From Bdellovibrionales bacterium (GTDB lineage Bacteria > Bdellovibrionota > Bdellovibrionia > Bdellovibrionales > UBA1609): a DNA stretch of 64,000 bases. The stretch lies in assembly GCA_041690295.1 (NCBI GenBank), contig JAWLHR010000008.1, forward strand, positions 1-64,000, given 5' to 3'. The first letter of the stretch is position 1. The number at the start of each line of letters is the position of its first letter. A model generated the notes under the pieces. It ran no database searches, was not told where the DNA came from, and saw nothing but the letters and a program-made list of their open reading frames with translations. The position numbers and the translations under genes were made by a program. Of this stretch, positions 26,968-47,160 are shown in pieces.

Positions 26968-28146
26968 CTACTTTTTAAGAAGGGATTCGCAGCGGCGCAA
27001 CTCGCGGTTGCGGAACCACAGGCTTTTTTCGAACTTTGCCAGCTCGCCACTGGAAATCCACTGTGGCCATAGATAATCGCGATGATCAGCCCAATCGGCA
27101 CCGGCCTCGGTCACATAGATGTAAAACGCTTTGAGGGCCTCCTGGGGCTTTACAGGCGGATTTAATAGGTGGTTCACGTCAGGGCTGAAATCCAGCTTGG
27201 CCACTTTGACCCGCGGGCGGATGGGAATCGGGCTCTTTAACTTTTCCAGGAGGAGCAGGCGCTTGTGGAGGAGATCAATTTGCCGCACCCACATGTCCAT
27301 GCTGGTCTGGGGGCGCACGGCACGGAACTCAATCCGTGAGGCCTCACCGGCACTGTAATGGGAGAGATTGACCGCGAAATAGCACTGGCGCGTGCCGCCG
27401 GTACGCCAGTGCTCAAAGCATTCATCCGTCTCCAGATTCATGGCGACGTGAAGGTCTTGCAGAAACTTTTTGGACCCGTCTATTCCGGTGTAATCGCCTT
27501 CATCGAATCCCTTGATAATATTGCGGACCACCCGCTGAACCTTATCCGATTGCACGTAAATCGAGGCGGCATTGTGAGTGTCGTAATTGAACACGCCGAG
27601 AAAAAGCTCGTTGTGGTTTAACATGGTGTCGACGATGAAATTGCGTAGAAGAAGGGGATTGCCGTCAAAAGCCTCAAGGCCCAGATTGATGTGTCCGCCG
27701 CCCATGAACATGGCGGGCCACAGACCTTCGTTCCCGGCGGAAACGAAAATCGCATCCTGCATATCGCTCATATAGCGGCGGTAGTATTCGGGGCTTTCCG
27801 GTATGGTTTTGATTTCCAGAACGCTGTCGTCGTAACCGAACTCAAACCACCAGCCGTTGGGTGAAGTGAAGCGACCGTTGGATTGGCGGGTGTCCAGCCG
27901 GGGCGGGCCAAAGGTGAATTTAGCGCCGTCCGGTTGCCCGTCGATCAGGTGATCCTTCATGCGTTGGATGACGCGGTCACCGCCGGGAACGATCCGCTTC
28001 TTGGGATCTTCGTCCTCGATGGGACCGACTTCGGGATTATAGAACGTGAATTCCGCGCCGAAACGGACAGGCCCAAGCGGCCATCCGGTCACGGGGGCGA
28101 GCAGGAGCAAGAGCAAAAGAACGGCGCGGTCGAAAATTCTCCCCAT
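26968..28146 (-). CDS. Secreted putative amidoligase (COOH-NH2 ligase, glutamine-synthetase-like fold), C-terminal CESLL
   Basis: FGAEFTF, D.SVLEIKT.P, GGGHIN, YFAVN and RIEFR match the order of Amidoligase_2 motifs; signal peptide. Confidence 0.65.
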   Translation of the reverse strand: MGRIFDRAVLLLLLLLAPVTGWPLGPVRFGAEFTFYNPEVGPIEDEDPKKRIVPGGDRVIQRMKDHLIDGQPDGAKFTFGPPRLDTRQSNGRFTSPNGWWFEFGYDDSVLEIKTIPESPEYYRRYMSDMQDAIFVSAGNEGLWPAMFMGGGHINLGLEAFDGNPLLLRNFIVDTMLNHNELFLGVFNYDTHNAASIYVQSDKVQRVVRNIIKGFDEGDYTGIDGSKKFLQDLHVAMNLETDECFEHWRTGGTRQCYFAVNLSHYSAGEASRIEFRAVRPQTSMDMWVRQIDLLHKRLLLLEKLKSPIPIRPRVKVAKLDFSPDVNHLLNPPVKPQEALKAFYIYVTEAGADWADHRDYLWPQWISSGELAKFEKSLWFRNRELRRCESLLKK

Positions 28147-28150
28147 CAGA

Positions 28151-31100
28151 TTAATTCATCAAAGCCGCTTCGCAGGCTTTCGCACGGATCGCAGCGGGTT
28201 CAATGTCCAAAGTCTGCTTGCCCTCTTTCACGGCTTCAGCCCACTCTTTTTCGAGGACGCTGAACTCTTTGGCGTTCATGGTTCCGCCCATTTCCATGAG
28301 AAACTTCACGCCGGCTTCGATCAGGCCCCAGTTGGCTTTGATGTGCGAGACGGCGAGATCACGTGCCTCATCAATCGCCTTTTGCACCAGACGATCGAAC
28401 TTCGCCTGAAGATCGGCCGGCAGATTGGTCACGATGTCACCTTTGGAATCCTTGTAAGCGTGGGCGGCATCGAGTTCCGGCATCAGGTGGGCATCCAAAA
28501 TCATGCGGCGGGCGAGTGAGCCAGCGCGCTCCACATCATTGCTTCGGCCCACGTTATGGGCGTTGTCTTTGCCAACGAAAAGCGTTTCCGCCTCGGAACC
28601 GGCGAGCAGTCCCGCGATGTGTTTCACCATCCATTCCCAATCCGGCGGACCTTGGCGCGGTACATTTCTGTACTGAACATATCCAAGGGCCGAGAAATCG
28701 CCGCCGAAGCTTTCGGGCACGATGGTGATCTTTACCACTTTCTTGCCGGTCACTTTGGTGAAGGCGGTGATGGCGTGACCCATTTCGTGGTAGGCCGTGG
28801 CCATCGCGTTGTCGATGTGCACTTGCGGGATGAACGAAGCTTTATCGGTGAAGTCCGCCTTGGATTCTCCGACTTTTTCTTCGCCCATGTACGTCTCGGC
28901 GTGGATCACGGCTTTACGCGGATCCGGTTTGCTTCCGCTATAGAAGGGATTGGTCGGCTTGATGGTGTGCAGGCGCACCTTGATTTTCAAGCGCGTTCCT
29001 TCTTCGAGAAGCGCATCCCAGCTGTGAGTCAACGCCTGGTCGGTGACCAAGGGGCCGAGGGTGTTCTTAACGAATTCGTTGATCGAGCGCGCGCCGGTTT
29101 TCGGCGAGAACATCAATGCGCCGATTTCTTTGTAAATGTCTTCGGGCAGCTCGATATCGATCGGCTGATTCTTCTCGACTTTTTGTTTCCACTCGTTGAT
29201 CAGCTTTTTCGCGATCAATGTCTTCACGTCTCCCAAAGTCGGGCGCATGAAGTGCGAGAAGGCGAGCCGGCCGATGAAGGCGTCGGTGAATCCCGCTTGG
29301 CTCAAAAGATTCTTAACGAACTGGGGATCCTTCATGACGTCGTTGTAGGTTTCTTCAAGCATGCTGTCGCTGGTCAATCCGCGAAGAATTTCTTCGCCGT
29401 CGTTACCGGTGAAGATCATGACGTGATTGTTCAGCGGATAAACCTTGCCGCTCGGCGAACGGTAAAAACCTTCTTCGAGCATGGTGTAGAACTGCATGGC
29501 CACCGAACGCTTGAAAACGATGTTGTTACCGCCGACGTTGCTCATTTCGTCAAAGAGCAAGACGCCGCCATCCGGATACTGAATCAAAAACTGCTCAAGT
29601 TCGCCCGGCTGGTCGGAACCGATGATGCCTTTTCCGGGAGAAAGGATGGTGTTGAGGTCGCTTTCATGTTGAATGCGGCCCATGTCGAACAGTCGGATGG
29701 CTTCTTTACGCCCGAAAAGATGCTTGGCCAAGACTTTGGCCAGTTCGCTCTTACCGGACCCGGTCACGCCGAGCAGGAAGCCCGCGACCGGGCGACCCTC
29801 TTCACCTTCGAGGAAGCGGGCCTTCACGCCGGAAGCGATGGCGCGGATGGCTTCGTCCTGCCCGAAAATTTCGGACTTCATATTGGCCTCAAGATCCACC
29901 AGGCGCTGGCGGAATTCGGCGTCGAGAAGTTTGTTCTTCACCGGAATCCGAGGGCCGTCGATGGTGAGTTCGTTCTTTCCATCGGTGATGGTCACATAAG
30001 AGACAGTCTTCAACGACTTGTGAAGCTTGGCCGAAATCTTCAGCTCTTTCGACTTGAAGCCGTGCTGAAGTTTGAATTCGTTGATCGCGCGGGAAAGATA
30101 CTGCTGCACATTGGTGCGGATTTGACGGGCGCCCAAGGCTTCGTTGTAAAACGCCGAAGTCATGACTTCGGCCAGGGAATCATCCACCACGATGCGGGTG
30201 TCGCTCTGTTTGTGGTAGTCGCGGACGAATTTGTTGATTTCCAAATGGGCGATTTGGACAGCCTCATCCTTCAAGAGCGGGGAGGCGAAATAAATCCGGT
30301 CCACGCGCTCAAGAATCGCCGACTTCACTTGTTTGCTGGCGTCTTCGGTGTACGATGCTTTTTCCGTGAACGCTTTCTTCAATTGTTCTTCGGTGATCCC
30401 CGCGATCCGGCGATCAAGTTCGGCGCGGGTCATGCCTTTAATGGCATCGTAACTCAGGATCCGGTCGGAATTCTTATTGGATGTCAAAATGAAAAGCGTG
30501 CGGCCCACGTAACGGAGCTTGCCGTCACCGCCCGGGAAAGAGCCTTTGTCCCACATTTCCATGAAGCGAGTCAGGGCATCAGCGGACATCTCCTCAATCT
30601 CGTTCATGATCACGATACCGCCGCCTTTACCGCGGCCGTCGAAGAAATCACAAAGAACGCCTTTTTCTTTATCCGATGAAACATAACCATTGTTCGCCCC
30701 GAACAAGCTGGTCATGGTGTGGGCGTCTTTGTACTGGGTCATATCCAATTCGATGAGGCGGCTCTTATCGCCATAGAATTCCTCAGCGAGAATTTCACCG
30801 AGAAGGGATTTACCGACGCCGGTGGGTCCCATCAGAAGAGCGATATTGTGTTGACGTGAACGGGAAGTGAGAGCGGCGATGAATTGGTCAACGACACCGT
30901 CCACCATGGCTTTTTGGCCGATGATCCGTTCCTTCATCCGCTCTTTCACGCCTTGCATGTAATTGGCGAATTCCTGTTCATTTTGCGGGATGACGGGCAG
31001 GCCGAGTTGGCTGGCGACGAAACGGAATAGATCCGCGCGCTTCGGCGTCACCGCTTTTCCTTTGGCCTTGCGGTTCTGATGGACCATGAAATCTTCGATC

Positions 31101-32008
31101 AGCTTTTCCGAGCGCCGCGGTTCCGCCACGTCTTTGCGGTAATCCGGAGAAACGTCGATCAACGCGTTCAGTACATCTTCGGTAATGCGGACGTTGGTGC
31201 GGGGAGTGAGTTCATCTTTGATCAATTCGCCGATGATGTCTTTCACCTGATCCGGTCTGAATTCCCGGATCATCACCGGCTCGGCGATGCTGGTGAAGCT
31301 CGGATGGCCCTTGATGCTGTTGCCATAGGACTTGCTGTCCACTTCTAGAATGATCGGAAGAGGATTATCCGAATCGGCTTCTTCACGCAGGACGCTCACG
31401 ATGTAATCGTTCGCGAAGTGGCTCTCCTGAAAAACAACCAGGATTTTCCGGTTCAGGTTCTCCTGAATGAACTTCACAGTATCGAGGTACGCCGAGATGT
31501 CGGCTCCGCCAGGTATGAATCTGCGCATCGAGGTCCTGAAAACCACCATGCCGCGAAACGTATTCTTGTAAAGGTCCGAGGGGGGAAACTCCCGAAAAGC
31601 GATTCGCAGAACTGTTTCCTTGATGACGTCCGTTTTGCCGACGCCCGTATCGCCGACCACGATCGGAAATTTGTTTTTCTTACGTTGGAGCAGATCAAGA
31701 ATTCGGGAGATTTCGTCTTCACGATGGAGTACGCCACGGACTCCGTCCTGATTGGCCTCTTGGACCAAGAGATCGCTCCAAACCTCAGAGAGATGAGCGA
31801 CCATACCGGGAAGCTTGTTGCCGCGCCTGGCTTGCTCTTCGGCAAATGTCCAAAGATCGTTCGTGAAATACCTGTATCGTTCATTATTATTGTTCGAATT
31901 GGTGGACGTGGTGTTGTTGTTACTGGAGTTGCCCTCATGCGCGGCTGCGAAGGACGACGTTAAGATACACGTGGCGACTATGCAGACGAAGCCTACCCAT
32001 TTTGACAT
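28151..32008 (-). CDS. Signal-peptide-bearing ClpA/B-like protein with three AAA+ modules fused to an M41 (FtsH-type) peptidase domain, C-terminal CEAAL
   Basis: Walker A GDTGVGKT, GPTGVGKS, GVTGSGKS; AYHEMGH...LAGSEAE...GRSNDVERA; N-terminus MSKWVGFVCIVATCILTSSFAAA|H. Confidence 0.85.
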   Translation of the reverse strand: MSKWVGFVCIVATCILTSSFAAAHEGNSSNNNTTSTNSNNNNERYRYFTNDLWTFAEEQARRGNKLPGMVAHLSEVWSDLLVQEANQDGVRGVLHREDEISRILDLLQRKKNKFPIVVGDTGVGKTDVIKETVLRIAFREFPPSDLYKNTFRGMVVFRTSMRRFIPGGADISAYLDTVKFIQENLNRKILVVFQESHFANDYIVSVLREEADSDNPLPIILEVDSKSYGNSIKGHPSFTSIAEPVMIREFRPDQVKDIIGELIKDELTPRTNVRITEDVLNALIDVSPDYRKDVAEPRRSEKLIEDFMVHQNRKAKGKAVTPKRADLFRFVASQLGLPVIPQNEQEFANYMQGVKERMKERIIGQKAMVDGVVDQFIAALTSRSRQHNIALLMGPTGVGKSLLGEILAEEFYGDKSRLIELDMTQYKDAHTMTSLFGANNGYVSSDKEKGVLCDFFDGRGKGGGIVIMNEIEEMSADALTRFMEMWDKGSFPGGDGKLRYVGRTLFILTSNKNSDRILSYDAIKGMTRAELDRRIAGITEEQLKKAFTEKASYTEDASKQVKSAILERVDRIYFASPLLKDEAVQIAHLEINKFVRDYHKQSDTRIVVDDSLAEVMTSAFYNEALGARQIRTNVQQYLSRAINEFKLQHGFKSKELKISAKLHKSLKTVSYVTITDGKNELTIDGPRIPVKNKLLDAEFRQRLVDLEANMKSEIFGQDEAIRAIASGVKARFLEGEEGRPVAGFLLGVTGSGKSELAKVLAKHLFGRKEAIRLFDMGRIQHESDLNTILSPGKGIIGSDQPGELEQFLIQYPDGGVLLFDEMSNVGGNNIVFKRSVAMQFYTMLEEGFYRSPSGKVYPLNNHVMIFTGNDGEEILRGLTSDSMLEETYNDVMKDPQFVKNLLSQAGFTDAFIGRLAFSHFMRPTLGDVKTLIAKKLINEWKQKVEKNQPIDIELPEDIYKEIGALMFSPKTGARSINEFVKNTLGPLVTDQALTHSWDALLEEGTRLKIKVRLHTIKPTNPFYSGSKPDPRKAVIHAETYMGEEKVGESKADFTDKASFIPQVHIDNAMATAYHEMGHAITAFTKVTGKKVVKITIVPESFGGDFSALGYVQYRNVPRQGPPDWEWMVKHIAGLLAGSEAETLFVGKDNAHNVGRSNDVERAGSLARRMILDAHLMPELDAAHAYKDSKGDIVTNLPADLQAKFDRLVQKAIDEARDLAVSHIKANWGLIEAGVKFLMEMGGTMNAKEFSVLEKEWAEAVKEGKQTLDIEPAAIRAKACEAALMN

Positions 32009-32174
32009 TTTGCTTTTTCCCCACCGTTTACGAGCGACCCTCGACGCCCGAAAAAGTTTACCCTTTTGCTTGAAAGCATCCGTTATGGAAGACGAGCGAG
32101 GGAGCGTCAATTGGCCATTGGTGCCGACACGGGGCCAGTAAAAAAGTTTCTTACCGTTTTGAAAAAAGTAACGA

Positions 32175-33590
32175 CTAGCGAATCAGGCGACCTTCGCAGG
32201 CCGCTTTAAGTTTGCGCAACTTTCGCACATTCGGCTTTTGAAAATCCGCCGAGAACGGTTTTTGTGAGATCTCAACCGAGATGACATCCGTCTCATTGAA
32301 CCGGAGTTCTCTTCCATGGCTGTTCACCTCGGGACTGTCATAATCCAGCGTGCTGCCGTTGGCCGCGATGATTTCGCGGTAATGGTGATCCAGAAAGCGC
32401 ATGGGCCGAGGCGGCTCTTCCGCCACGGCCTTCAGCATGGTTCTGATGATGGGGAAGAAATTCATGTTGGCGCGAATGCTGTGATCGGGACCGAGCACCA
32501 CAAGATCCGTACGGAAGATCTTCGGTGCCGCGGTCTTGATCGTCCGCAGAATCAAATCCGTTTGCGCGGCCGTGAGATCCGGGCCTTGAACGGTGTGCAC
32601 GAAGACGGCTTTACGTCCGGCTATTTCGACAAGAGTCAACCCCAGGTAGCCCAGGGAGTGGCCATCTTGGTCAAAAATGTAATAGTAGCGGTCAAAGGGA
32701 TTCAGAGCGAACCCGGGGGAGAAGGACGTGGAGCAGTCATTGCCCACATAACCTCGAAAAATTCCCACATTCGGATGCACTTCCTTGATGTGCAATTGAT
32801 CACCCACATTCAGTGTCTGGTCGATTGGTTCGGAAAATACATTTTCACTGATGGCTTTATGGACCTTGTCCAAAGTGTCGGTTGTGATTTTAACTTTCAA
32901 CCGGGACAGCAGCGGCTTGTAAACCTGGGCGTCTTGCATGAAATCCAGGGCCCCGACTTCAAGGTCCCGCAGCCGCGACATTAAGACCGCGGCCGGCCGT
33001 CTTTGCTTGGGCGTGTTCAGGATCCCACCGATGATCAGATAACCGCTGAGAAGCGTATGGAACTCCTGCATGGCGCGGAGAGAGGGCAACGCACGGTGCA
33101 CGGCCGCCGCTTCCAGTTCCGCGGCCAGGCGATCGAGGATTTGCTTTTTTGATGAGCGATGGCTTGCGACCTGTAAAGCCAGCGATTGCCACTTGATCTT
33201 CCACATGTTCCAGCGTCGCTTGTTGAGCTGGATGGAGTTCTCGCTTTCAATGGGACGAATCACCGTGACCGAGATGTCGGTGAGCGGCTCGCGCTCGGAC
33301 CAATCCTTGTAAAATTCCGGATGTTTTGAAAGCTCAATTAAAAGCTTTTGTTGAATGTATGAAAGCTTGGAGAGCCCGGCGTAATAGCTCAGGTGTTCGT
33401 AGCGAATGGCTCCGGGGAAGGCGCGTTCATGCTCTTCGAGAAGGGATTTGATGTACGCATCGGCGTTTCGGTAATCCCTTTGCAAAACCGTGCTGGGAAA
33501 ACGGATGGTCTGTGGTTTGGAGGTGGTCGCGCGAAGCGGTTGGGGAACAACCAAAAGGCCGGCGGCCAAAACAAAAATATCGGTGATCAT
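32175..33590 (-). CDS. Secreted RGxVGxDCS-family protein, C-terminal CEGRL
   Basis: EVHPNVGIFRGYVGNDCST. Start and signal peptide are less certain than for its paralogs. Confidence 0.75.
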   Translation of the reverse strand: MITDIFVLAAGLLVVPQPLRATTSKPQTIRFPSTVLQRDYRNADAYIKSLLEEHERAFPGAIRYEHLSYYAGLSKLSYIQQKLLIELSKHPEFYKDWSEREPLTDISVTVIRPIESENSIQLNKRRWNMWKIKWQSLALQVASHRSSKKQILDRLAAELEAAAVHRALPSLRAMQEFHTLLSGYLIIGGILNTPKQRRPAAVLMSRLRDLEVGALDFMQDAQVYKPLLSRLKVKITTDTLDKVHKAISENVFSEPIDQTLNVGDQLHIKEVHPNVGIFRGYVGNDCSTSFSPGFALNPFDRYYYIFDQDGHSLGYLGLTLVEIAGRKAVFVHTVQGPDLTAAQTDLILRTIKTAAPKIFRTDLVVLGPDHSIRANMNFFPIIRTMLKAVAEEPPRPMRFLDHHYREIIAANGSTLDYDSPEVNSHGRELRFNETDVISVEISQKPFSADFQKPNVRKLRKLKAACEGRLIR

Positions 33591-33685
33591 GGACAGCCAA
33601 CCAATTAAAGGAAATTTATTTTTATTGCAAAGTCTTGATCGCCGAGCGACCGACCGATTGTAAAAGTTCATCATTCGCCAAGAGA

Positions 33686-34807
33686 TTAGTCGTCATCGCC
33701 AAAAAACAAACCCCATAATCCAAAGAATCCGGAACCGGGTTTTTCAGGCCGCTGATTTCGTTTTGGCGGCGCGGGGGGTGGGGGCGGCGCCGGCGCCGGC
33801 AGATTCTGTCCTTCGACGGCGAACCGGAAACTCAGATTCTCCTCGGCCAACGGTGCGGCGGTCATCCGCACCCGGGCCGAATAACCCACGACTTCGGTGA
33901 TCAGGCGCGCGGCCTGAACGTAGTAATCCCAGTTCATATTTTTGATCGTGTCTTTTGGCCCATGATTGTACGGATTCTCGAACTGCGAGCCGTAGGGTCT
34001 GGCCATTAAAATCGCCGGCTGATCCTCTTCCCAATAGACTCCGTGATCGGCCGCTTCCGGATCGATGCGATGAATTTCAGAAGCGACTTTCAGTCCGCGG
34101 TCCACGGGTAAGCGGCGAAGCTGATAGAAGATTTCCCGCGCGAGCGGAAGGTTGTCCTCGCGATCGCCAACTTCGGCGACGATCACCGGCTCGCGGTGCT
34201 TCGGAAAATAACCGATGGCATCGACAATGAGCACGCCGATGAGCTTTCTTGGATCATTCTCCAATTGTCGGGCATGGTGTCTCGCGCCCGCGCCGTCAAC
34301 TTCTTCCAGGTCATGAAAGATCAAGCGCACGGTCCGGCCGGGCGGGTGATGGCGAAACAGCTCCGCCAGATGCAACACAAGGGCGACGCCCGCGCCATTG
34401 TCATCGGCGCCGGTTTCAACCGCATCATAGTGGGCGCCGATTTCCAAAATCTCATCCGGGGTTTCGAGGCCGGGGATTTCAACCACCACGTTCGCCCCTT
34501 CAAGAAAAGTTTCAAAGGTGGCCGAATAGCCAAGCTGCCTTAAATGTTCCGCGATCGAGAGACGGGCGATCTCCCGGCTCAGTTTATTCGATCGCTCTTC
34601 AAGACGAACGCCACCCCATAAGGCCTTATCTCCGCTTATGAAGGCGATATGACTGCGCAATCGATCCGGATTCACTTTGTTGGCGAAGGCGTAGGCGGCA
34701 TGAACTTTTGGATCAGGCTGCTCCTGTACCAGGACCGGTTCACAGGGTTCTTCGATATGGGCCTGCGCCACGGCCACGAACAAAGACAAAAGTAAGTGAA
34801 GAACCAT
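33686..34807 (-). CDS. Secreted M28 family metallopeptidase, N-terminal CEPVL
   Basis: GAHYD, GADDNGAG, DLEE, DAIG, YNH..D; signal AQA|HIEEPCEPVL. Confidence 0.88.
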   Translation of the reverse strand: MVLHLLLSLFVAVAQAHIEEPCEPVLVQEQPDPKVHAAYAFANKVNPDRLRSHIAFISGDKALWGGVRLEERSNKLSREIARLSIAEHLRQLGYSATFETFLEGANVVVEIPGLETPDEILEIGAHYDAVETGADDNGAGVALVLHLAELFRHHPPGRTVRLIFHDLEEVDGAGARHHARQLENDPRKLIGVLIVDAIGYFPKHREPVIVAEVGDREDNLPLAREIFYQLRRLPVDRGLKVASEIHRIDPEAADHGVYWEEDQPAILMARPYGSQFENPYNHGPKDTIKNMNWDYYVQAARLITEVVGYSARVRMTAAPLAEENLSFRFAVEGQNLPAPAPPPPPAPPKRNQRPEKPGSGFFGLWGLFFGDDD

Positions 34808-34947
34808 TCCCGCTCCCGGTGGTAAGGCGGCCTTTATACTGGGAGCAAGGCAGGCATGCAACTTGGTACTATTTACCAGTTTCTGTAGAAATTGTAGGAA
34901 GCGGTCCGCCCGTTGCCCAAATTCAACCGCTTTGTTACCTGACTGAA

Positions 34948-38798: not shown

Positions 38799-38971
38799 CC
38801 GGCCGCGGGCTCGAAATCGTTTGTTTTTAATTGCCGTGGCTTATCAGCAACCGAGTCGGGTATCAATGTGAACTTCCCCCCAATCTTGCGAACATGAAAA
38901 AATTCACATTTTCCGATGGCCGCTAAGTGTGCTAGCGCTCGCCTATTCTCAGGGTATGGAGATCTAAATAA

Positions 38972-41389
38972 ATGCGGCTTGCTTCTTGCCTCCGCCTTTT
39001 GGTGCTGGGGTTTATTTTATCCATTGGCGTTTCTCTTCACGCCAAGATGGATTTACCGCCGATTCTGAACACTCAGGAAGAGTTTGCGGAATACGAGCGC
39101 ATGATTCGCACCTTGATTCCTGAAACCGGTGTGAAACGAAACTTTCCTATCAGTGTTATCGATTTGATATCAATGGAGCAAAACCTGCTGCGGCACCTGT
39201 TAGCGGATCCGGAATACGTCGCCGCGGCCGAGGCTCGCCCGCCGCTACAGACCTTGCGATTTCAAGAGATCAAAATGGAATCCGTGCGGGGAATGGGGGC
39301 CAATCCCCAATGGGATAAGTTTTTGGAAGCGCACGGATATGATCCTCAACTGAATGAAGAGCAAGCCCAAAAAGAGCTTCTTTCGCTGTTTCATAGATGG
39401 TCGACTTTTTCCGCCAATGGCTTTTTCTCCGGTTGGGCCGCGCTTCTCCGCGGTGAGATCAAGGAGATCCTTCGCGAACCCGATCTCATTGAGCGCTGGC
39501 GGAGACTCAAAGCCGTTTTGACCGAAAAAGATCCAGCGGTGGTGCGCAACTTCAAAGCTGAGCGCTACGGGATCACGTCGCCGGATTGGACATTAAATGA
39601 TCTTGATGCGGTTGTCGAAAGGCTCAATGAACTGGAATCCCGCATTCTGGTTTTGCTGCAGCGTCTGAACCAGGACCTTCCCTTTCGTGATCGTTTCACC
39701 ACTCACGGAATTGAACATAACGCCGGCAATCTGCTGAGCGGGCTTTCCGCGCGGGCTCTTCGCCTTTACGCCGATCCGGACATGGAGATCGTGCAGAGAA
39801 CCGTCACCAAGGAACTCATCTTGCGCGAGGTTCCTCCCACGCTGGCGATTTATCGGGGTGTCGTCGGTAACGACTGCTCAACCGAGCGTTCGTTCGCTTA
39901 CCCGTACAGTCCCTATGAGCGCGTGTGGTGGGTGGAGAAATCCGACGGCACTCGGTTGGGATACGTTTCGGGTAACATAACATTAGTTGAAGATAGGCCG
40001 TCGCTATTCATCCGCGATGTTCAGGTTCCAGGGCTGCACGGAGACGATGCGGCGATTGATCTGATCCTCGCCGGATTTTACCTCGCCCGTCCGTACTATG
40101 GCGTGAATCAGATGACCGTGATGAATACCAATTTCACCTTTCAGAATAATTTATCTAGCCACAGGGAGAAATTGGTTCAGCTTTTAGGGGCGACATCCGA
40201 GCCCGTCCAACAAAAATTCCAGGATGAAAGGTGGCGTGAGGGCATCTTGAAATCAATGGTCCGTGCGGACGGCTATGATGGGAGCAAAATCCACGCGCAA
40301 GTTCGTCGGGTGTTTTATTCGCCTGAAACGCTTGAGAAGTACCAGGTGCAAAGAACATCCGGTGGCGCGGTTGAAGCGATCGATCCACAGGAGTCGCCGG
40401 AACAATTTTGGGAGATTCTTGCATCAGCCACCATGAATCAGGATCCGTTCATTTTGCAAGCCGCGGTCAAAACGCCGGAGGAGATCTCCTGGAAAAACAT
40501 CATCAACTTGTTTTGGAACCGCGATCGGCTGCCGGTGGAACTTTTTTACGGCTCGGTGGAATTGGCTCTGCGGCAGGTGAATCTTCCGGTCAGCCGGAAT
40601 CTGATGCGCAAATTCGAATCCGTTTTCGCCAACGGCCACTTGGCGGCCCCGGATGCGTTCGAGGGCGAGAAGAACACCCGTCAAAGCATTCGGTTCGTCA
40701 TGGATGCCATTTGGCGCTCACGGGATATGAAGCGGGCCACGGAACTGGTTCAGAAGTACCTTGAGCCGCTCGAAGAGCATGATCTGATGGTCCGAAACGC
40801 CCGCAGCTTGTTTGAACGCCGGCAACCCGAGGACGTCGCGCGAATCGAAGCTCTGCTTGCCGCCGGTTATCGATTTCGTCGCCAGCTTCTCGGGCAACGG
40901 GACTGGTTGTGGCTGGCTCAAGTGGTTAACTCGGAAGAACATAAGCTTTGGGCGATTTCGCATTTAATACCAAACGAAAATTTCGTGAACGTGGGCGACC
41001 TCATTCCTGGGGTGATCGAAGTTTTGGCGCCACTGTTGAATAATGAAGACGAAGCGGTGCCGGAAGAGTTCAGTATCAAGGCCGCGGCGATTTTGTTTCG
41101 AATCGTCGGCGCCGGTGCGGTCTCGCCCGAAGTTCAGGCGGAAATGGAAGAGACAATTCAATTCGAAGAGAACTTGCAGATTCTATTCCCCATCGCCGTG
41201 GCGTACCTGCGGGATTACGTAACGACGCCGGAGCAAAGGGCCAATCCGAAATCGGTCTGGAATATGGCTTTTCAGGTCGTCCATAAGGAAGCCAAGAATC
41301 GAGAATTGGATAAAGTGTGGCGCGGGGAAGCCGCCAAAATTTTGCGACAATACAAATCCGAATGTGAAAATCTTCTGACTGGTGCGTGA
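38972..41389 (+). CDS. Secreted RGxVGxDCS-family protein with helical C-terminal extension, C-terminal CENLL
   Basis: EVPPTLAIYRGVVGNDCST; signal LHA|KMD. Confidence 0.85.
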   Translation: MRLASCLRLLVLGFILSIGVSLHAKMDLPPILNTQEEFAEYERMIRTLIPETGVKRNFPISVIDLISMEQNLLRHLLADPEYVAAAEARPPLQTLRFQEIKMESVRGMGANPQWDKFLEAHGYDPQLNEEQAQKELLSLFHRWSTFSANGFFSGWAALLRGEIKEILREPDLIERWRRLKAVLTEKDPAVVRNFKAERYGITSPDWTLNDLDAVVERLNELESRILVLLQRLNQDLPFRDRFTTHGIEHNAGNLLSGLSARALRLYADPDMEIVQRTVTKELILREVPPTLAIYRGVVGNDCSTERSFAYPYSPYERVWWVEKSDGTRLGYVSGNITLVEDRPSLFIRDVQVPGLHGDDAAIDLILAGFYLARPYYGVNQMTVMNTNFTFQNNLSSHREKLVQLLGATSEPVQQKFQDERWREGILKSMVRADGYDGSKIHAQVRRVFYSPETLEKYQVQRTSGGAVEAIDPQESPEQFWEILASATMNQDPFILQAAVKTPEEISWKNIINLFWNRDRLPVELFYGSVELALRQVNLPVSRNLMRKFESVFANGHLAAPDAFEGEKNTRQSIRFVMDAIWRSRDMKRATELVQKYLEPLEEHDLMVRNARSLFERRQPEDVARIEALLAAGYRFRRQLLGQRDWLWLAQVVNSEEHKLWAISHLIPNENFVNVGDLIPGVIEVLAPLLNNEDEAVPEEFSIKAAAILFRIVGAGAVSPEVQAEMEETIQFEENLQILFPIAVAYLRDYVTTPEQRANPKSVWNMAFQVVHKEAKNRELDKVWRGEAAKILRQYKSECENLLTGA

Positions 41390-42813
41390 TTGTGAAGCGG
41401 GCGCTAATCCTCATTTTGATCGCTCTTCACGCTCTCTTGGCCAACGCCAAGATGGATTTCCCTCCGGTGTTCGAATCCGAGATGGAGGTCCGTAACTACG
41501 CTTTTAAGATCGCCAGCCTTCTTCCGGAAACAAAAATTCCCCGACAATACAGCGCCGATGTTTTGTCGGTCGTCAAATGGGAACAAATGTTGTTGAAGGT
41601 TTTATTGGACGATCCGAGTTGGGTGGCCGCCACGAAAAAGCGCGAAGCCCTTCAATTGTTTCGTGTGCGTTACATTGTCAAACACCAGGTGAAAGAGCTG
41701 GAGCCGAACACCCGTTGGAAGGAACTCCTCGACCAGGCTCCGGATCTGGACGCCACCGCCGCTTATAAGGAATTTGAACAGCTTGTTCGGAGTTGGCGAG
41801 AAGTCAACTCTCAGCGATTTTTTTCGGGCTGGGCGTCGCTCTTTCCCTCGGAGGTTAGGGATATCTTGCGTGAACCGGATTTAAATCTCCGATGGCGGAA
41901 TCTGAAATCGTTTTTGAAGACGGCTTCTCCTCTTATTATCTCGCGATTTAAAGCGGAAATTTTCGGTGCTTCTCAGCGGGATTGGACCTTGGATGATCTG
42001 GATGACGTGGTGAAAAAACTGAATGACGTTGAAACTCGGATTCTACTTCTCTTGTATCAGCTGAATCATGGCCAAACATTTGAAAAACGGTTTTCGCTAC
42101 CCGATAGCTACTCGTATTTGAGTAAACACATGAACTCTCTTGTCTCACGCGCGCTGAGACTCTATTCAGAGGTCGCCAAAGTGACCGAGGAGCAAGAGCT
42201 TGTCTATGATTTCGTCTTGCGCGAGGTTCCTCCCACGCTGGCCATTCACCGGGGCGCGGTGGGCAAGGATTGCTCGAGTCTTTATTCGTTCGCTTTCCCG
42301 TACAGTCCTTTTGAGCGCGTCTGGTGGGTGGAGTCACCCGAGGGGCAACGCTATGGTTATGTCTCGGGTAACATAACTCTTGTGAATGGAACACCCAATC
42401 TCTACATCAGTGATGTCCAAGTGCCAAGTCTTCCGGGCGGGCAAGCCATAGAGTTCATTCTCAAAGCGTTTTATATGATAAAGTCCCATTACGGCGCGAC
42501 TCAAATGACCATTATGCATGAGGACTTCACCTATCAAAATCACATCCCGTTTCATCGCAAGTTCCTCGTGGAAGCCAAAGGCGCCCACAGAACCTATGTC
42601 CGTCAGTCCTATCAGGATAGCGGTTGGCGGGGGGGTGTTCTCAAGGAGTTCAGCCAGAAAGCGGCTCAACGGTTCGATGTGAACTATGACAGTGCCGAAC
42701 GCCACGAACTCGTGCGTCAGGTGTTTTATCCGGGAAGCGAACTCGAGGGACTGGAAGTCGAACGAAAAATTCTAGATTCCCAGTCTTGCGAGAATCTTCT
42801 AGCGGCCAGCTAG
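41386..42813 (+). CDS. Secreted RGxVGxDCS-family protein (tandem paralog), C-terminal CENLL
   Basis: EVPPTLAIHRGAVGKDCSS; signal ANA|KMD; GTGA overlap with the upstream stop. Confidence 0.85.
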   Translation: MIVKRALILILIALHALLANAKMDFPPVFESEMEVRNYAFKIASLLPETKIPRQYSADVLSVVKWEQMLLKVLLDDPSWVAATKKREALQLFRVRYIVKHQVKELEPNTRWKELLDQAPDLDATAAYKEFEQLVRSWREVNSQRFFSGWASLFPSEVRDILREPDLNLRWRNLKSFLKTASPLIISRFKAEIFGASQRDWTLDDLDDVVKKLNDVETRILLLLYQLNHGQTFEKRFSLPDSYSYLSKHMNSLVSRALRLYSEVAKVTEEQELVYDFVLREVPPTLAIHRGAVGKDCSSLYSFAFPYSPFERVWWVESPEGQRYGYVSGNITLVNGTPNLYISDVQVPSLPGGQAIEFILKAFYMIKSHYGATQMTIMHEDFTYQNHIPFHRKFLVEAKGAHRTYVRQSYQDSGWRGGVLKEFSQKAAQRFDVNYDSAERHELVRQVFYPGSELEGLEVERKILDSQSCENLLAAS

Positions 42814-43931
42814 GGCAATAGAGCGAATTCACAGGCGCGTTTCTTCTCCAGATCAGCGAAGCGCTTGCTTTTTTCATATTTCTCGACTTCTCCGTCGGTG
42901 ATCCATTTCGGCCAGAGATAATCGCGATGATCTTCCCATTTCTCGCCGGCCTCACTCAAATAACGATGGAACGATTCCAGGGCTTTTTGCGGATTCACCG
43001 GTGGTACGAGTAAGGCGTCGTTCGGGTCCGATATAGGTAAAACGGGGGTTTCGAGCTTCAGGGGAATTGGTTCGTTTAAACGGGAAAGGTAGTTGAGGCG
43101 GGCTTGGAGCAAGCGAATCTGCGCGAGCCAGGTGTAAATGGATTGTTGCGGGCGAACACCTCTAAGTTCAAGACGTCCGCGCGGAAGCGAATCAGCATTT
43201 AAGAAATTGATCGCCACCCACCGAGTTCGAGAAATGTAGTATTTCCCCCACATGTGGAGATAAGGATCATGCATTTCCCAGAAGGCTTTCTTGATATCTT
43301 TGAGAAAGCGGAATGTCCCGGCCGCGACAGGTGCGTAGGCGCCCGCATCGAAGTCTTCGATCACCTTTATGAATTTAATTTTATGGCTTTCGGGAAACAA
43401 AGGGTAAGGGAGCGCGTTGTGAGTGTCATAGTTGAAAATGCCCATGAAAAGTTCGTTATGATTGTGAAGATCGACAATGAAGTTGCGAAGGAGAAGGGGA
43501 TGCTCCATCAAGTCATGGATATCGATGTTGATGTGTCCGCCGCCCAAGAATAGGGCGGGATAACTTTGTTCGTTCCGCGCGGAAACAAATATCGCATCTT
43601 CGATATCGGCGGCGAAACGGGTGAAGTCGTAAACAGTCATCGGCTTCATCTTGATTTCGACCACACTCAAATCGACGGACAGCTCGTATTCCCATCCGTT
43701 CGGTGAGATAAAGACGCGCTTACCGATGGTCCTGAACCTAGCTCCCGGTAACTGGCCATAAACCAGGTGATCCCTCATTCGATGAAAGAACCGCTCAAGA
43801 TAATCATGCTGTCCTTCGGGCGGCGTTTGAAAGGTGAACTCCGGCCCGAACAGAAGTTGGACCTCTGGTGGCTTGGCATGGACGAATCCAGCCAAGAAAA
43901 TGAGAATTATAAAAATTGCATCCTTACCCAT
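42810..43931 (-). CDS. Secreted putative amidoligase, paralog of 26968-28146, C-terminal CEFAL
   Basis: FGPEFTF, SPNGW, GGGHIN, NHNELF.G.FNYDTHNA, RLELR; signal VHA|K. Confidence 0.65.
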   Translation of the reverse strand: MGKDAIFIILIFLAGFVHAKPPEVQLLFGPEFTFQTPPEGQHDYLERFFHRMRDHLVYGQLPGARFRTIGKRVFISPNGWEYELSVDLSVVEIKMKPMTVYDFTRFAADIEDAIFVSARNEQSYPALFLGGGHINIDIHDLMEHPLLLRNFIVDLHNHNELFMGIFNYDTHNALPYPLFPESHKIKFIKVIEDFDAGAYAPVAAGTFRFLKDIKKAFWEMHDPYLHMWGKYYISRTRWVAINFLNADSLPRGRLELRGVRPQQSIYTWLAQIRLLQARLNYLSRLNEPIPLKLETPVLPISDPNDALLVPPVNPQKALESFHRYLSEAGEKWEDHRDYLWPKWITDGEVEKYEKSKRFADLEKKRACEFALLP

Positions 43932-44040
43932 GGAAATAACGCGGATTACACCTAAATGACTCGAAGCTTCCGTGCAAGCAGGCCGAAAGTTTTTGCCAAA
44001 TTTTCTTGGAATTTTCTGACGCAATCTGCAATAAAGTGCC

Positions 44041-47000
44041 ATGCGAAAAATTTGGCTCGGCCTTCTCCTGTTTTGGTGGCTGCCCGCTTACGCGCACGAC
44101 ACCAACTGCGAACGAAATCTTTTAGCGGAGTTAGTGACCGCGAACTTCAAAGAACATTTGGTCGAAGTGCCTGATATCCGTGGCCAAGTCGTTAAATTGC
44201 TGGCCGACCAGGAAGTCTCCCGCCGGATGGAATTGGATGCCGACCTGACGGCCCGGCATGAGGCCCGGGAGATGTCCTTTCAAGTCAAAAACGGAATCAC
44301 CGGGCTTTACGATAAATTTGTCGCGGTTGAAGTGAATAGTTTTGTGGCTCCGATTCTCAAATCGGATTTTGATCGCATGGTCGCATCAACCGGACCCTTG
44401 ATGCGGCTGTACCGGCAACTTCTGCAGAAGATTTACTCCATCCCGAACGCCGGAATTGAAGATCTGGGATTCGGCGACCTTCCGCGCGAGGAGGCCGAGC
44501 TGGCGCTTCATACGATCCGTGACTCCATATATCTGGAGCCGGCGCTGATTCACCCCAACATGGCCGAATATCCCTTTTTGGCGGTGGCGGGCTTTGACGG
44601 CGCGGTCGTGGATCCCAAAAGGCCCGCCACGGAATTTTTTGAAACCAATCTCGGCACACCGAGCGGACTCAGCAATAACGTTCAACTCCTTCATGATCTG
44701 TTATGGCTCAACGAGCCCTTGAAAAAGCTGGTCGAGCCTTACCTGCCTAAAGACGACACGTTTCAGATTTTACGTAAAGCCATCGAAAGCAATGCCCGCG
44801 CCTGGACCGGAAAAGAGGGGCTGAGCGTTGTGATCTCGCCAGGGATTTATAACGGCGCCCATCCGGACGTGGCCTCCATCGCACGGGCTTCGGGCATGCC
44901 GCTGGTGAAAAGCAGCGACCTTTATGAGGACCGTGATGGATATATTCGGTTGAATACGGGAAAAGGAGAGGAGGACCCTCTTGTCACCGGTATTTATGGA
45001 CGAATGGAAGAATCCTTTTTTCTCCAGTCCAACGCCGATAAAATTCCACTGATCAGTCCGAATTTCCAAGACAATCAGGCTTTATCCGAGAGGCTGGGGG
45101 TCGACCTTCGCCCGGGCGCGATTTATGACTTCATCTATGACGACGGGGGCAAAATCGTCGGCGTTCACCGTGACGAAAACGGCGAACCCAAATTTTTGGA
45201 AGTCTGGGATACGATCAGCGAAGATCCTTCGCGGCCGGGTCATAGGGGGAGCTTCGCCAAAGCCATCATCAATCGCAAACTTTATTACAGCAATATCGGC
45301 GGTCGGGTGGTCGATGACAAACGCCTGTTTCGGATCCTGACCAGTTACCTGCTTCCGCAACTTCCGGATATGGCCCGGCCCATCCGGGGCCTGGCCCAGG
45401 ATCAATTCGATCTTTTCTACGCCAACCCATCGAGCTTCGTGGTGAAAGAGCCTGGCAACTCCGGCGGAGTGGGAATTTACTTTCCCCGCGCGATGAGCGA
45501 GAGCGCGGTGGCCGAATTGGTCGAGCGCGTCCGCGCCCGGCCGACGGAATTTGAAATTCAATATCTGAGTGCCATCGCCACTTTGCCGGCGGTGAGCCAA
45601 TCGAAAAGCGGCCGGGAAGTCCATAGTGAGGTCCCCATTGATTTGCGAATTTTCGTGATGATGGATGCGGACGGAAATGTCGACGCCGGACCTAATTCAA
45701 TTCTCTTACGAACCGGCGCGCGGGGCGGGTTGTACACCAACACTTCCCGCGGCGGCGGTTACGGGATCGGCTTGATCCTTGAAGACCAGCCGGGGGTCCG
45801 TGAGACGAAGCCTTTTCAATGGGCGAAAATGCAAGTTGGTCAGTGGCCGAAAAGCCGCGAAACAGAGCTGGCCACCGTGCTCGAACAGGGCACCGCTTTG
45901 ATCAAATGTCTCTTTTCTTTGCGCTTCAATCAGGATGATAAAAAATGGAACGAGTGCCGAAGCCAGGCACTCGACCTTTCCTTCGCTTACCGGCAGGTCA
46001 TGGACTTGATCAGTCCTTGGCATTTGCAAGTGATCGCGACGTTAAGGAACTTCGCCCATGGGCGGGACCGCAACCTGGTTCAAAGCACCGAACTGGCCCG
46101 GCGAATGATTCAATCCTTCCGCCGCATGCGGCAGTCGGAGGGCGCGCTCGCGAACGTGGCCGCTCCCTTTTTCGCGAAGCACGCCCGCGAGTTGGGCCGC
46201 TTGGACCCCGTTGATCTTCAACATTTAAGGCTTCCCACCAAAGCCAAACTTCGCCGATTGGATCCGCCGGAGGTGAGCTATCGCTATGCGCCGGAAGGCA
46301 AGCTTCGCTCGCGGAAAATCGAGTTCGCCGAGTACATTTGGGTCGACAATCCCGAAGTGCAGGAAGTGATCGACGAGGTGAAGGCGTTCGGCGGCCAGGT
46401 GAGATTGCTCATTCGCGAAGTGGCGATCGAGAATCCGGAAGGCGTCGATAAGTGGTTCGGTCGCGAGTCCGCTTATTTCTGGGTGAATCTCAATCCCAAG
46501 TCCCCGTCCTATCTAATGCCCGTGATCGGCATTGATCTGGCCCGGGAGATGTCACTGGCGGCCCTTCATCATGAGCGGGAACATTTCCGGATGTTGCGCG
46601 AACTTTATGCCAATTACCGGCGGCGCGGCTTCGGTCATGAAAAAGCCATGCTCCGAGCCTATGCCGAAACCGAGACGGAAGAGAAAATCGTCGAAGCCGA
46701 ACGGCGTGCGGTGAAGGCTGAGATCAATGCCGAAGTCGAGTATGCCGACCATCCCTATAACCGGTTTTTCGGTAAATCCTGGGAAGCGAATCATTTTTAT
46801 GAAATCGGATTTGTGAACCGGATGACCTATCCGGAGTTTGAAGGCCTGCGCCGGCATTTGCGCCAGGTGAAGTGGGACCGGGTGCCGGTGAAAGAGGATT
46901 TCATCCGTAAAACCTTCTCCGCCGCGATTGATTTCGCGCTAAAGACCCGGGACCAGGCCTTTCTCCACTTTATGGAAAAAGATGATTTAGCCTCCATCCG

Positions 47001-47160
47001 GCTGTGGCGTGAATCCAATGTGTTCCTGATGCTCACCCAGCCCTATGGGCATGAGCGGCTGGAATTAGATGGCATTCGCGATGATTTTAAACTCTGGCTG
47101 TCCAAGGTCTGCGCCGAAATGGGCGTGAGTGCCGAAGATTGCGGAGTTCCGGTCCACTAA
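44041..47160 (+). CDS. Secreted circularly permuted ATP-grasp (type 2-like) protein fused to an HExxH domain, N-terminal CERNL
   Basis: GFD...FETNLGTPSGL, VVKEPGNSGGVGI, IDLRIF, NTSRGGG; LHHEREH; signal AYA|HDTNCERNL. Confidence 0.75.
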   Translation: MRKIWLGLLLFWWLPAYAHDTNCERNLLAELVTANFKEHLVEVPDIRGQVVKLLADQEVSRRMELDADLTARHEAREMSFQVKNGITGLYDKFVAVEVNSFVAPILKSDFDRMVASTGPLMRLYRQLLQKIYSIPNAGIEDLGFGDLPREEAELALHTIRDSIYLEPALIHPNMAEYPFLAVAGFDGAVVDPKRPATEFFETNLGTPSGLSNNVQLLHDLLWLNEPLKKLVEPYLPKDDTFQILRKAIESNARAWTGKEGLSVVISPGIYNGAHPDVASIARASGMPLVKSSDLYEDRDGYIRLNTGKGEEDPLVTGIYGRMEESFFLQSNADKIPLISPNFQDNQALSERLGVDLRPGAIYDFIYDDGGKIVGVHRDENGEPKFLEVWDTISEDPSRPGHRGSFAKAIINRKLYYSNIGGRVVDDKRLFRILTSYLLPQLPDMARPIRGLAQDQFDLFYANPSSFVVKEPGNSGGVGIYFPRAMSESAVAELVERVRARPTEFEIQYLSAIATLPAVSQSKSGREVHSEVPIDLRIFVMMDADGNVDAGPNSILLRTGARGGLYTNTSRGGGYGIGLILEDQPGVRETKPFQWAKMQVGQWPKSRETELATVLEQGTALIKCLFSLRFNQDDKKWNECRSQALDLSFAYRQVMDLISPWHLQVIATLRNFAHGRDRNLVQSTELARRMIQSFRRMRQSEGALANVAAPFFAKHARELGRLDPVDLQHLRLPTKAKLRRLDPPEVSYRYAPEGKLRSRKIEFAEYIWVDNPEVQEVIDEVKAFGGQVRLLIREVAIENPEGVDKWFGRESAYFWVNLNPKSPSYLMPVIGIDLAREMSLAALHHEREHFRMLRELYANYRRRGFGHEKAMLRAYAETETEEKIVEAERRAVKAEINAEVEYADHPYNRFFGKSWEANHFYEIGFVNRMTYPEFEGLRRHLRQVKWDRVPVKEDFIRKTFSAAIDFALKTRDQAFLHFMEKDDLASIRLWRESNVFLMLTQPYGHERLELDGIRDDFKLWLSKVCAEMGVSAEDCGVPVH

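Follow-up and report, generated by a model that had tools for sequence, protein, structure and literature searches.

A short cysteine tag at either terminus of predicted exported proteins in Bdellovibrionota

Encapsulins and bacterial microcompartments recruit unrelated enzymes to one common receiver by short cargo-loading or encapsulation peptides, which are cytoplasmic, can sit at either terminus, carry neither a Sec signal nor a Cys, and bind the shell non-covalently. In AB toxins such as diphtheria toxin, ricin and the clostridial neurotoxins, a disulfide tethers the catalytic cargo to a translocating partner and is reduced in the cytosol of the target, which frees an enzyme dependent on cofactors of that cytosol, the two chains being one precursor or a fixed pair. 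According to the main text of the Haft preprint, another group of signals is C-terminal, contains a Cys, is tripartite (motif, transmembrane helix and Arg cluster) and is read by intramembrane CPBP proteases. For Bdellovibrio-like predators, we found no description in the literature of a linear signal that routes their large sets of exported enzymes past their own periplasm. Here we analyze a 64,000-nt stretch of DNA (the window, G000:C8:1-64000) from a Bdellovibrionota genome of 2.88 Mb in 30 contigs, in which a block of ten genes encodes predicted exported proteins that all carry the motif C-E-x-x-L near one end. The best explanation, judging from the sequences compared, is that C-E-x-x-L would be this species' version of a phylum-wide tag, C-x-x-x-[L/F/I]. 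The tag matches no described sorting signal that we found, and it probably marks a shared delivery or tethering route.

A sequence-only reading of the window had reported CExxL in all ten genes of the block, a signal peptide on every product and five unrelated families, and these three points were borne out. All open reading frames (ORFs) and termini were found at the positions in Table 1; the motif is C-terminal in seven proteins, with the Cys 7th or 8th from the end, and lies at residue 22-23 in the other three. A signal-peptide-like segment was recognized in 10/10 proteins by a hydrophobicity heuristic and by reading of the sequences, gene 3 having the least typical one, and four of the ten genes need an internal start codon. 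The families are a glutamine synthetase (GS)-like ligase (two genes), an AAA+-M41 fusion (gene 2), a GNAT-like protein (four genes), an M28 peptidase (two genes) and a circularly permuted ATP-grasp protein. The same reading had seen no tag on exported proteins outside the block and had treated the tag as a property of the block. The observation was right for the window (0 of 12 signal-peptide-like ORFs), which explains why the tag looked local, but not for the genome: other contigs hold a further seven C-terminal and some 21 N-terminal cases. About 41 proteins are tagged in the genome, of which the block contributes one cluster, and the tag cannot be regarded as a property of the block. The idea that Sec-exported proteins from unrelated families share a portable tag, which works at either terminus, was upheld, and so was the enrichment at the termini for which that reading had asked, here over shuffled tails and other windows.

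The genome survey was based on 2762 ORFs from a simple greedy caller, with inferred starts. CExxL was present within the last 10 aa of 14 ORFs, compared with a mean of 0.76 (maximum 3) for 29 other ten-residue windows and a mean of 1.15 (maximum 6) in 1000 shuffles of the tails, and it was found in one of 5159 rejected ORFs in non-coding frames. Half of the 14 are outside the block. The Cys of the C-terminal tag peaks at positions 7 and 8 from the end, with a range of 6-11 in the genome, and the C-terminal matches without a signal peptide are those at off-peak positions. At the other end, 19 of 901 signal-peptide-like proteins contain CExxL in the first 25 residues past the hydrophobic core, compared with 0-2 per later window. 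Both termini are enriched 12- to 18-fold. When the signal-peptide rule is relaxed, about 41 predicted exported proteins are tagged, 24 of them N-terminally and 17 C-terminally. The proteome holds 105 CExxL motifs where 60 are expected, and the excess is accounted for by the 41 tags together with ten internal copies in one Ig-repeat lipoprotein. This huge lipoprotein (L277/L278), whose gene is broken by an N run in the assembly, has about 15 tandem 89-aa Big_13/Big_6 Ig-like repeats in which each C-[ET]-x-G-L pairs with a Cys 20 residues on. The codons used for the motif vary among the genes, and therefore selection acts at the protein level and no DNA repeat is involved; a DNA repeat or recombination site as the source of the motif was ruled out by these differing codons.

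Conservation of the Cys and its position in orthologues, on which the sequence-only reading had staked its proposal, was found in several families, with the correction that the conserved core is C-x-x-x-[L/F/I] and not C-E-x-x-L: the near-terminal Cys and the hydrophobic residue at +4 are kept, the Glu is not. The N-terminally tagged alpha/beta-hydrolase of 1004 aa was compared at 23 loci, which belong to at least 12 genera within the same family; 22 have a Cys soon after the signal peptide and L/F/I at +4, and the 23rd is cut by a contig end. In two other families of the phylum, a post-signal Cys is present in 6/6 loci. In the C-terminally tagged M3 peptidase, C-x-x-x-[L/F] is near the end in seven of nine evaluable orthologues, and in one of the nine the Cys is third from the end. 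The M3 orthologue L073 has no C-terminal Cys and carries the tag after the signal peptide instead, so that the tag has swapped termini. An exported Leu/Phe-tRNA protein transferase with CE..L is present in 4/5 same-genus genomes (L087-L090) and was not found in five genomes of the sister family, and the cytoplasmic transferase of each same-genus genome has neither signal peptide nor tag. For gene 2, all 18 complete C-termini among its homologues in the phylum show C-x-x-x-[LFIMV] within the final 30 aa, and the GS-like ligase has the Cys at all 16 complete C-termini of genome loci from about ten families.

A profile search with the GS-like ligase of gene 9 returned 885 representatives among 1.84 billion proteins, and nearly all of the relatives found by the profile begin with a signal peptide. 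C-x-x-x-[LFIMV] was present in the last 25 residues of 62 of the 63 full-length relatives in the top 75 and of 105 of 131 in the top 150, compared with 0-4 in control windows. Among the 105 tagged relatives, the residue at +4 is mainly Leu (70), Phe (22) or Ile (9); in the ligase relatives the Cys is 5-22 residues from the end, mostly 5-9. For the ATP-grasp protein of gene 10, the three closest exported homologues elsewhere have a signal peptide and a Cys tag, and 16 distant ones are without that pair. On a contig from a metagenome-assembled genome labelled "uncultured Pseudobdellovibrionaceae bacterium" (L009), an ATP-grasp protein, an AAA-M41 protein and three ligases adjoin one another, all of them tagged and none with Glu at +1. 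In the same-genus genome G012, two GNAT-like homologues (L002 and L005) end in Cys tails without the Leu at +4 and with a finish rich in Ser, Arg and Lys, and these may be a different tail variant.

In the genome studied here, the whole excess of terminal C-x-x-x-L consists of CE..L, and other C...L tails are at background. Elsewhere the +1 position is more varied: it is Ser in 20, Ala in 19 and Glu in 13 of the 105 tagged ligase relatives, and Glu in 2/18 AAA-M41 relatives. Genomes of the same genus are mixed, with Glu in 7 of the 13 tags read. Going by these counts, Glu at +1 is a local flavor of this genome and genus. Since the 41 tags belong to more than 25 unrelated families, the shared Glu does not come from descent, and a shared reader whose preference is local is therefore the simplest explanation. 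We infer, fairly strongly, that the tag is recognized by another factor.

The invariant residue of the tag is a Cys, in proteins of a compartment where unpaired Cys appear to be avoided. A bias for even numbers of Cys is said, by Dutton and colleagues, to be the mark of an oxidizing periplasm. The exported proteins of this genome follow that bias, the odd:even ratio being 139:255 for proteins of the signal-peptidase-I type and 19:65 for lipoproteins, against 831:621 for cytoplasmic proteins. Three DsbA-like genes are present, one of them fused to a VKOR-like membrane domain. The fusion (L111/L114, 397 aa) combines a multi-pass membrane domain, which contains Cys pairs and looks VKOR-like, with a DsbA-like domain bearing a CGHC site, and it is probably a periplasmic oxidation system. 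Among the tagged proteins, 26/41 have an odd total of Cys and 15/41 have no Cys other than that of the tag, and therefore a structural intramolecular disulfide is not the general role of this residue. When the tag Cys is left out, the remaining Cys are odd in 15 proteins and even in 11, which is like the cytoplasmic proteins (902:706, p=1) and differs from the untagged exported ones (129:283, Fisher p=0.009) in a test of 26 proteins whose paralogues are not independent. The tag ends have low confidence in the structural models of genes 8 and 9 and are probably flexible, and the tags are often set off from the protein body by Pro-rich stretches.

About 40 exported proteins carry the tag, and they form an accessory class that evolves fast. 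No Pfam family was found for 26 of the 43 tagged proteins scanned (10 from the block and 33 elsewhere), including 20 of the 33 outside the window. Those outside the window with a Pfam family include four alpha/beta-hydrolases, PhoD, an M3 peptidase, a trehalase and a solute-binding protein, besides the enzymes in Table 1. The GNAT-like family was found in 2/40 related genomes, with one partial outside match among 5.8 billion clusters; an Atlas search for this family gave scores below 0.9 and no lead. The dynamin-like protein was found in 0/5 same-genus genomes. Many of the tagged enzymes are predicted, from their domains and models, to need ATP, GTP, acyl-CoA or aminoacyl-tRNA. ATP, acyl-CoA and aminoacyl-tRNA are not expected in the periplasm. 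The need of the cargo for these compounds is the main reason for suspecting that it may act in the cytoplasm of the prey. A secreted Leu/Phe-transferase that adds N-degrons would be a striking way to feed prey proteins into prey proteases.

Table 1. Positions of the block genes and of other features discussed in the text. Locations without a contig name are window coordinates; products are predictions.
Feature	Location	Strand	Product	Tag	Cys of the tag
Gene 1	26968..28146	-	Exported GS/glutamate-cysteine ligase (GCL)/PafA-like carboxylate-amine ligase, 392 aa	C-terminal CESLL, nt 26977-26991	7th from end
Gene 2	28151..32008	-	Exported ClpB/ClpV-like double AAA+ ATPase fused to FtsH-type M41 metalloprotease, 1285 aa from signal-peptide Met	C-terminal CEAAL, nt 28160-28174	7th from end
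Gene 3	32175..33590	-	Exported GNAT-like protein, short form, 471 aa from Met before hydrophobic segment	C-terminal CEGRL, nt 32184-32198	7th from end
Gene 4	33686..34807	-	Exported M28 peptidase, 373 aa	N-terminal CEPVL, nt 34730-34744	Residue 22 of precursor; sole Cys of mature protein
Gene 5	34948..36612	+	Exported M28 peptidase with 230-aa C-terminal extension, 554 aa	N-terminal CEDQL, nt 35014-35028	Sole Cys of mature protein
Gene 6	36609..38798	-	Exported GNAT-like protein, long form, 729 aa	C-terminal CESLL, nt 36621-36635	8th from end
Gene 7	38972..41389	+	Exported GNAT-like protein, long form, 805 aa	C-terminal CENLL, nt 41363-41377	8th from end
Gene 8	41386..42813	+	Exported GNAT-like protein, 475 aa	C-terminal CENLL, nt 42787-42801	8th from end
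Gene 9	42810..43931	-	Exported GS/GCL/PafA-like ligase, 373 aa	C-terminal CEFAL, nt 42819-42833	7th from end; sole Cys of mature protein
Gene 10	44041..47160	+	Exported circularly permuted ATP-grasp protein with long C-terminal part, 1039 aa	N-terminal CERNL, nt 44107-44121	Residue 23
L014	G000:C4:52896-53609		ATP-dependent DNA-ligase domain, signal peptide	Tagged	
L018	G000:C4:99475-101475		Dynamin-family GTPase with C-terminal membrane segment, signal peptide	Tagged	
L022	G000:C7:119307-120392		Papain-like protease, signal peptide	Tagged	
L036	G000:C20:19282-20130		Second, exported Leu/Phe-tRNA protein transferase (Pfam 176.7 bits), beside normal cytoplasmic copy	Tagged	
Tagged pair	G000:C8:105207-108472			Tagged	
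L115	G000:C8:108509-109219		DsbA-like lipoprotein		
L111/L114	G000:C25:21237-22430		VKOR-like/DsbA-like fusion		
L275	G000:C4:141469-142464		Lgt homologue, 332 aa matched		
L276	G000:C1:51788-52471		Lgt homologue, 228 aa		
L277/L278	G000:C4:81510-86635	-	Ig-repeat lipoprotein		
Integrase-family gene	47163-47705	-	Phage-integrase family, catalytic domain only, 180 aa		
MqsA/HTH-like gene	48036-48515	+	Weak MqsA/HTH-like match		
tRNA-Val (GAC)	14722-14798	+	tRNA		

Within the block, the family assignments differ in how firmly they are founded. Both M28 peptidases match Peptidase_M28 (PF04389; 83.6 bits for gene 4 and 100.7 bits for gene 5, cut-off 21.3), the C-terminal extension of gene 5 having no Pfam match at E<=1. 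Gene 10 matches the circularly permuted ATP-grasp families PF14403 (CP_ATPgrasp_2, 63.2 bits, cut-off 32) and PF04174 (42.9 bits, cut-off 23.1) and the PDB entry 3n6x (E 5.3e-13), with no Pfam match at E<=1 in its last 439 aa. Gene 2 scores above the Pfam gathering thresholds for AAA_2 (111.9 bits), ClpB_D2-small (60.3) and Peptidase_M41 (58.4). Its NCBIfam matches to TssH, ClpB and FtsH are partial and far under the equivalog cut-offs, and therefore it is an orthologue of none of them. The ligase genes 1 and 9 had no Pfam or NCBIfam match at E<=0.01. The model of gene 9 has a predicted local distance difference test (pLDDT) value of only 69, with an average of 48 in the last block; in VIA-align its best 17 rows are all GS, glutamate-cysteine ligase, YbdK, Dop or PafA (Z 7.4-11.2), among them Dop at Z 10.1 and PafA at Z 9.7, with a weaker similarity to the ACD toxin domain (Z 5.7), and Foldseek also gives GS (prob 0.98, E about 1e-3). 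Gene 1 is 45% identical to gene 9, and its fold was assigned through the gene 9 model. Atlas neighbors of the GS-like ligase carry Amidoligase_2 (PF12224) in 29/30 clusters, with scores of 0.92-0.93. Genes 3, 6, 7 and 8 align with one another, with invariant columns that include D-C-S (43% identity between genes 7 and 8), and none of them matches Pfam. For gene 8 (AlphaFold pLDDT 85.3, tail residues 469-475 below 50), Foldseek found only GNAT acetyltransferase folds, with prob 0.99-1.00 but E about 3e-3, and all 50 rows listed by VIA-align are GNATs with middling Z values of 6.2-8.4.

Iyer, Abhiman, Burroughs and Aravind reportedly described in 2009 an amidoligase grouping of ATP-grasp, GS-like and GNAT-like ligases, plus peptidases. 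The block would therefore unite predicted members of those three ligase classes with M28 and AAA+-M41 peptidases. A single conserved multi-gene system was considered and rejected: the GNAT-like family is patchy, and the ligase, the ATP-grasp protein and the AAA-M41 protein co-occur at about the level of chance, with overlaps in 4, 3 and 2 of 200 phylum genomes against about 2-2.5 expected. No small tag protein or ligase substrate was found for the block. The phage-integrase-family gene (Pfam 81.4 bits) abuts the block, and this neighbor together with the patchy families of the block therefore suggests a genomic island. A search for att-like direct repeats flanking the block found none, only similarity between paralogues. 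Beyond the integrase-family gene lies the MqsA/HTH-like gene, and the sole tRNA of the window is far from the block. We read the region 26968-47160 as an island of ten cargo genes beside a recombinase gene, and not as the sorting machine itself.

We propose that the tag consists of a lone Cys with a hydrophobic residue at +4, at a flexible end of a Sec-exported protein, where it would lie either 2-15 residues past the cleavage site of the signal peptide or 5-20 residues ahead of the stop codon. Its reader would be a factor encoded in another part of the genome, and the specificity of that factor would drift between lineages. This reader may be a soluble or outer-membrane factor (a carrier, a translocator or a partner protein) that forms a mixed disulfide with the tag Cys in the oxidizing periplasm. 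The disulfide would tether the cargo or route it beyond the periplasm, and would break in a reducing compartment, most plausibly the prey cytoplasm. The tag is short, sits at flexible ends, can be at either terminus or swap between them, and has as its sole invariant residue a thiol that is otherwise avoided; a mixed-disulfide reader is therefore favored. Indirectly, the Cys counts, their parity and the cofactor needs of the cargo speak for an intermolecular bond at the Cys and for work in a reducing compartment that contains nucleotides. Our confidence is moderate for an intermolecular disulfide chemistry of the tag Cys, and weak to moderate for delivery of the tagged cargo into prey. The whole chain of reader, mixed disulfide, tethering or routing, and release on reduction is put forward tentatively, as somewhat short of probable. 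A broader version, in which Bdellovibrionota would have a general, programmable cargo loading, with Sec cargo bearing a lone-Cys tag coupled by a disulfide to a common carrier or translocator and released by reduction in the prey cytoplasm, is rather doubtful.

Several candidates for the machinery were considered. The one neighbor that hinted at machinery is the gene of a DsbA-like lipoprotein (L115), which directly follows a pair of tagged genes. Orthologues of L115 (L116 and L117) occur in two other genera, the best match in one sampled same-genus genome is only about 33% identical, and the gene appears to move horizontally. A multi-site carrier was looked for among proteins with more than one CE..L motif and dismissed, both matches being the one Big_13/Big_6 lipoprotein with its intradomain Cys pair. 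Nothing stood out as a carrier among the odd-Cys lipoproteins of the genome. The genome has two Lgt homologues (Table 1), and two or more matches are the rule among the 119 Bdellovibrionota genomes with a match; the second Lgt was rejected as the enzyme of the tag, on this account and because genomes with one match have tags as well and a helix-free C-terminal tag is unsuited to Lgt. As a separate observation, many predicted lipoproteins of this genome have an unusual lipobox ending in F-Q-N-C or similar, with no small residue before the Cys (for example those with ORF starts at C9:3229, C12:38873, C17:8092 and C20:4771).

A number of points weigh against the proposed mechanism. No partner, carrier or tag enzyme was identified in this genome among the candidates examined, and L115 was set aside as a dedicated oxidoreductase, since its close orthologues (59-69% identical), which occur in two genomes, have different neighbors. 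The ATP-dependent cargo could alternatively act in a leaky bdelloplast or be inactive relics. An intramolecular disulfide is possible in the 12 of 41 tagged proteins that have exactly one other Cys. The signal peptides, the gene starts and the exported set were defined by our own heuristics, paralogues inflate several of the counts, and the parity comparison given above is small and affected by them too. The tag showed no bulk enrichment over the initial 1.2 Mb of a complete genome from the sister family (G157, 45% G+C), so that cultivated Bdellovibrio may have it rarely or not at all. Four signal-peptide proteins in that 1.2 Mb have a terminal C-x-x-V-F, two of them N-terminally and two C-terminally, the motif occurring 20 times in the 370,722 residues, and the presence of the tag in cultivated Bdellovibrio is suggestive at most.

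Four other explanations were weighed. The Cys could be covalently modified, for instance S-lipidated, and anchor the cargo to the predator outer membrane or to vesicles bound for prey. The N-terminal tag does resemble a displaced lipoprotein signal, with a Cys soon after the Sec signal and often a Pro-rich linker behind it; two Lgt matches were found here and in most of the 119 matched genomes of the phylum; and the Cys-containing C-terminal sorting signals of other phyla are, in the main text of the Haft preprint, thought to be modified on the Cys. The residues at -1 (D, T, N, R, K) misfit a lipobox, however, and a normal site of the A-x-A type precedes them, and a single Lgt match is all that some tagged genomes have, G115, G128 and G173 among them. 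The C-terminal tag, which has only 1-6 residues behind it and no membrane helix, is out of the known reach of intramembrane Lgt or a CPBP protease, and because the N- and C-terminal tags share one reader, lipidation of the Lgt type is disfavored. We regard covalent modification as unlikely. Chance, descent of a terminal module or a DNA element, with no shared function, is very improbable. The ten internal CE.GL copies in the Ig-repeat lipoprotein show that an unrelated structural origin is possible, but it would not account for the 12- to 18-fold enrichment, the differing codons, the unrelated families and the conservation in hundreds of divergent relatives.

The tag could also be a non-covalent secretion signal, read by an outer-membrane translocon or adaptor (type II-like or unknown), with the Cys as part of a recognition surface or as a metal ligand. 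A short linear motif on flexible ends, with a flavor specific to the genome and a distribution confined to an accessory, effector-like subset of exported proteins, would fit such a signal. What makes it quite unlikely is that the Cys alone is invariant across very divergent lineages while the other positions drift, which is unusual for a motif of this kind, and that a lone thiol is otherwise avoided in the exported proteome. Just as improbable in our view is a redox latch, in which a disulfide joins two copies of the protein, or joins the tag Cys to another Cys that is in some cases catalytic, and keeps dangerous enzymes inactive in the periplasm of the predator until their surroundings become reducing. 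In its favor, the cargo seems harmful and aimed at a cytoplasm, the GNAT-like genes 7 and 8 encode exactly two Cys (that of the tag and that of the invariant D-C-S), and the AAA-M41 protein has two as well. The 15 of 41 tagged proteins without a second Cys do not fit a latch of this kind, and a flexible tail that swaps termini is poorly placed to block diverse active sites. Moreover, the conserved hydrophobic residue at +4 and the genome-wide Glu at +1 point to a common reader, and not to at least 25 private latches.

The tag marks a defined exported subset, works at either terminus and tracks its genome, and thus gives a direct experimental handle. It also provides a catalogue of candidate effectors for the whole phylum from sequence only, including exported versions of enzymes thought to be strictly cytoplasmic: the Leu/Phe-tRNA protein transferase, the DNA-ligase domain, the Pup-ligase-like and GNAT-like ligases and the Clp-FtsH fusion. 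Release of cargo by reduction of a disulfide, if true, would add a new principle to protein delivery from one bacterium to another. The general form of cargo loading, if true, would amount to an AB toxin in separate parts, serving dozens of effectors that depend on ATP, GTP or tRNA. It would answer how periplasmic predators move enzymes across the inner membrane of the prey, and would offer a minimal tag for protein delivery into Gram-negative bacteria. If release through a disulfide is wrong, the tag is still a very widespread sorting or modification signal that is undescribed as far as we found.

The sequence-only reading knew of no description of the tag, and none was found in full-text literature searches, with subscription-only papers and supplements outside their scope. 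The closest likeness is to the signals in the main text of the Haft preprint, in which "Bdellovibrio" has 0 occurrences. Like the tag, those signals are short signatures typical of a whole lineage, have a single invariant Cys, and stand at the C-terminal end of dozens of unrelated Sec-exported proteins in each genome, but they are never N-terminal, whereas the present tag has no helix or Arg cluster, is followed by the end of the protein after 1-15 residues when C-terminal, and occurs N-terminally as well. The tripartite C-terminal signals LPXTG, PEP-CTERM, GlyGly-CTERM and MYXO-CTERM differ in the same direction: only 2-3 residues follow the Leu in the block and 1-12 elsewhere in the genome, with no hydrophobic segment. 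The lipobox, served by Lgt, LspA and Lnt, shares with the tag an invariant Cys that comes right after a Sec signal peptide and leads into a flexible tether. The 24 N-terminal tags do not conform to [LVI][ASTVI][GAS]C, which closes the hydrophobic core and is cleaved immediately ahead of the Cys, having mostly D/T/N/R/K/P at -1 and the Cys 2-15 residues past a site of the A-x-A type, and, unlike the lipobox, the same motif is also found at C-termini. CaaX is similar in having a Cys near the C-terminus followed by aliphatic residues, often with basic residues before it; the Cys of CaaX is exactly 4th from the end, whereas that of the tag is 6-11 residues from the end in this genome and 5-22 in the ligase relatives, never 4, and the tag can be N-terminal and is on exported proteins. 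The folded C-terminal domain of type IX secretion (about 80 aa) and the C-terminal signal of type I secretion (about 50 aa, with RTX repeats) would, by their descriptions, contrast with an element of five residues that can be N-terminal.

The block itself has the predicted ligase classes of the amidoligase systems side by side with peptidases, and its GS-like model aligns with the Pup ligase/deamidase pair PafA/Dop and more weakly with the GS-fold actin cross-linking toxin domain of Vibrio MARTX/VgrG, with the difference that here all members have a signal peptide and a Cys tag. Like the encapsulin and microcompartment peptides, the tag is a short peptide at either terminus of unrelated enzymes, although a common receiver is only proposed here. 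Compared with the AB toxins, the partner is hypothetical, and one tag would serve about 40 separate cargoes.

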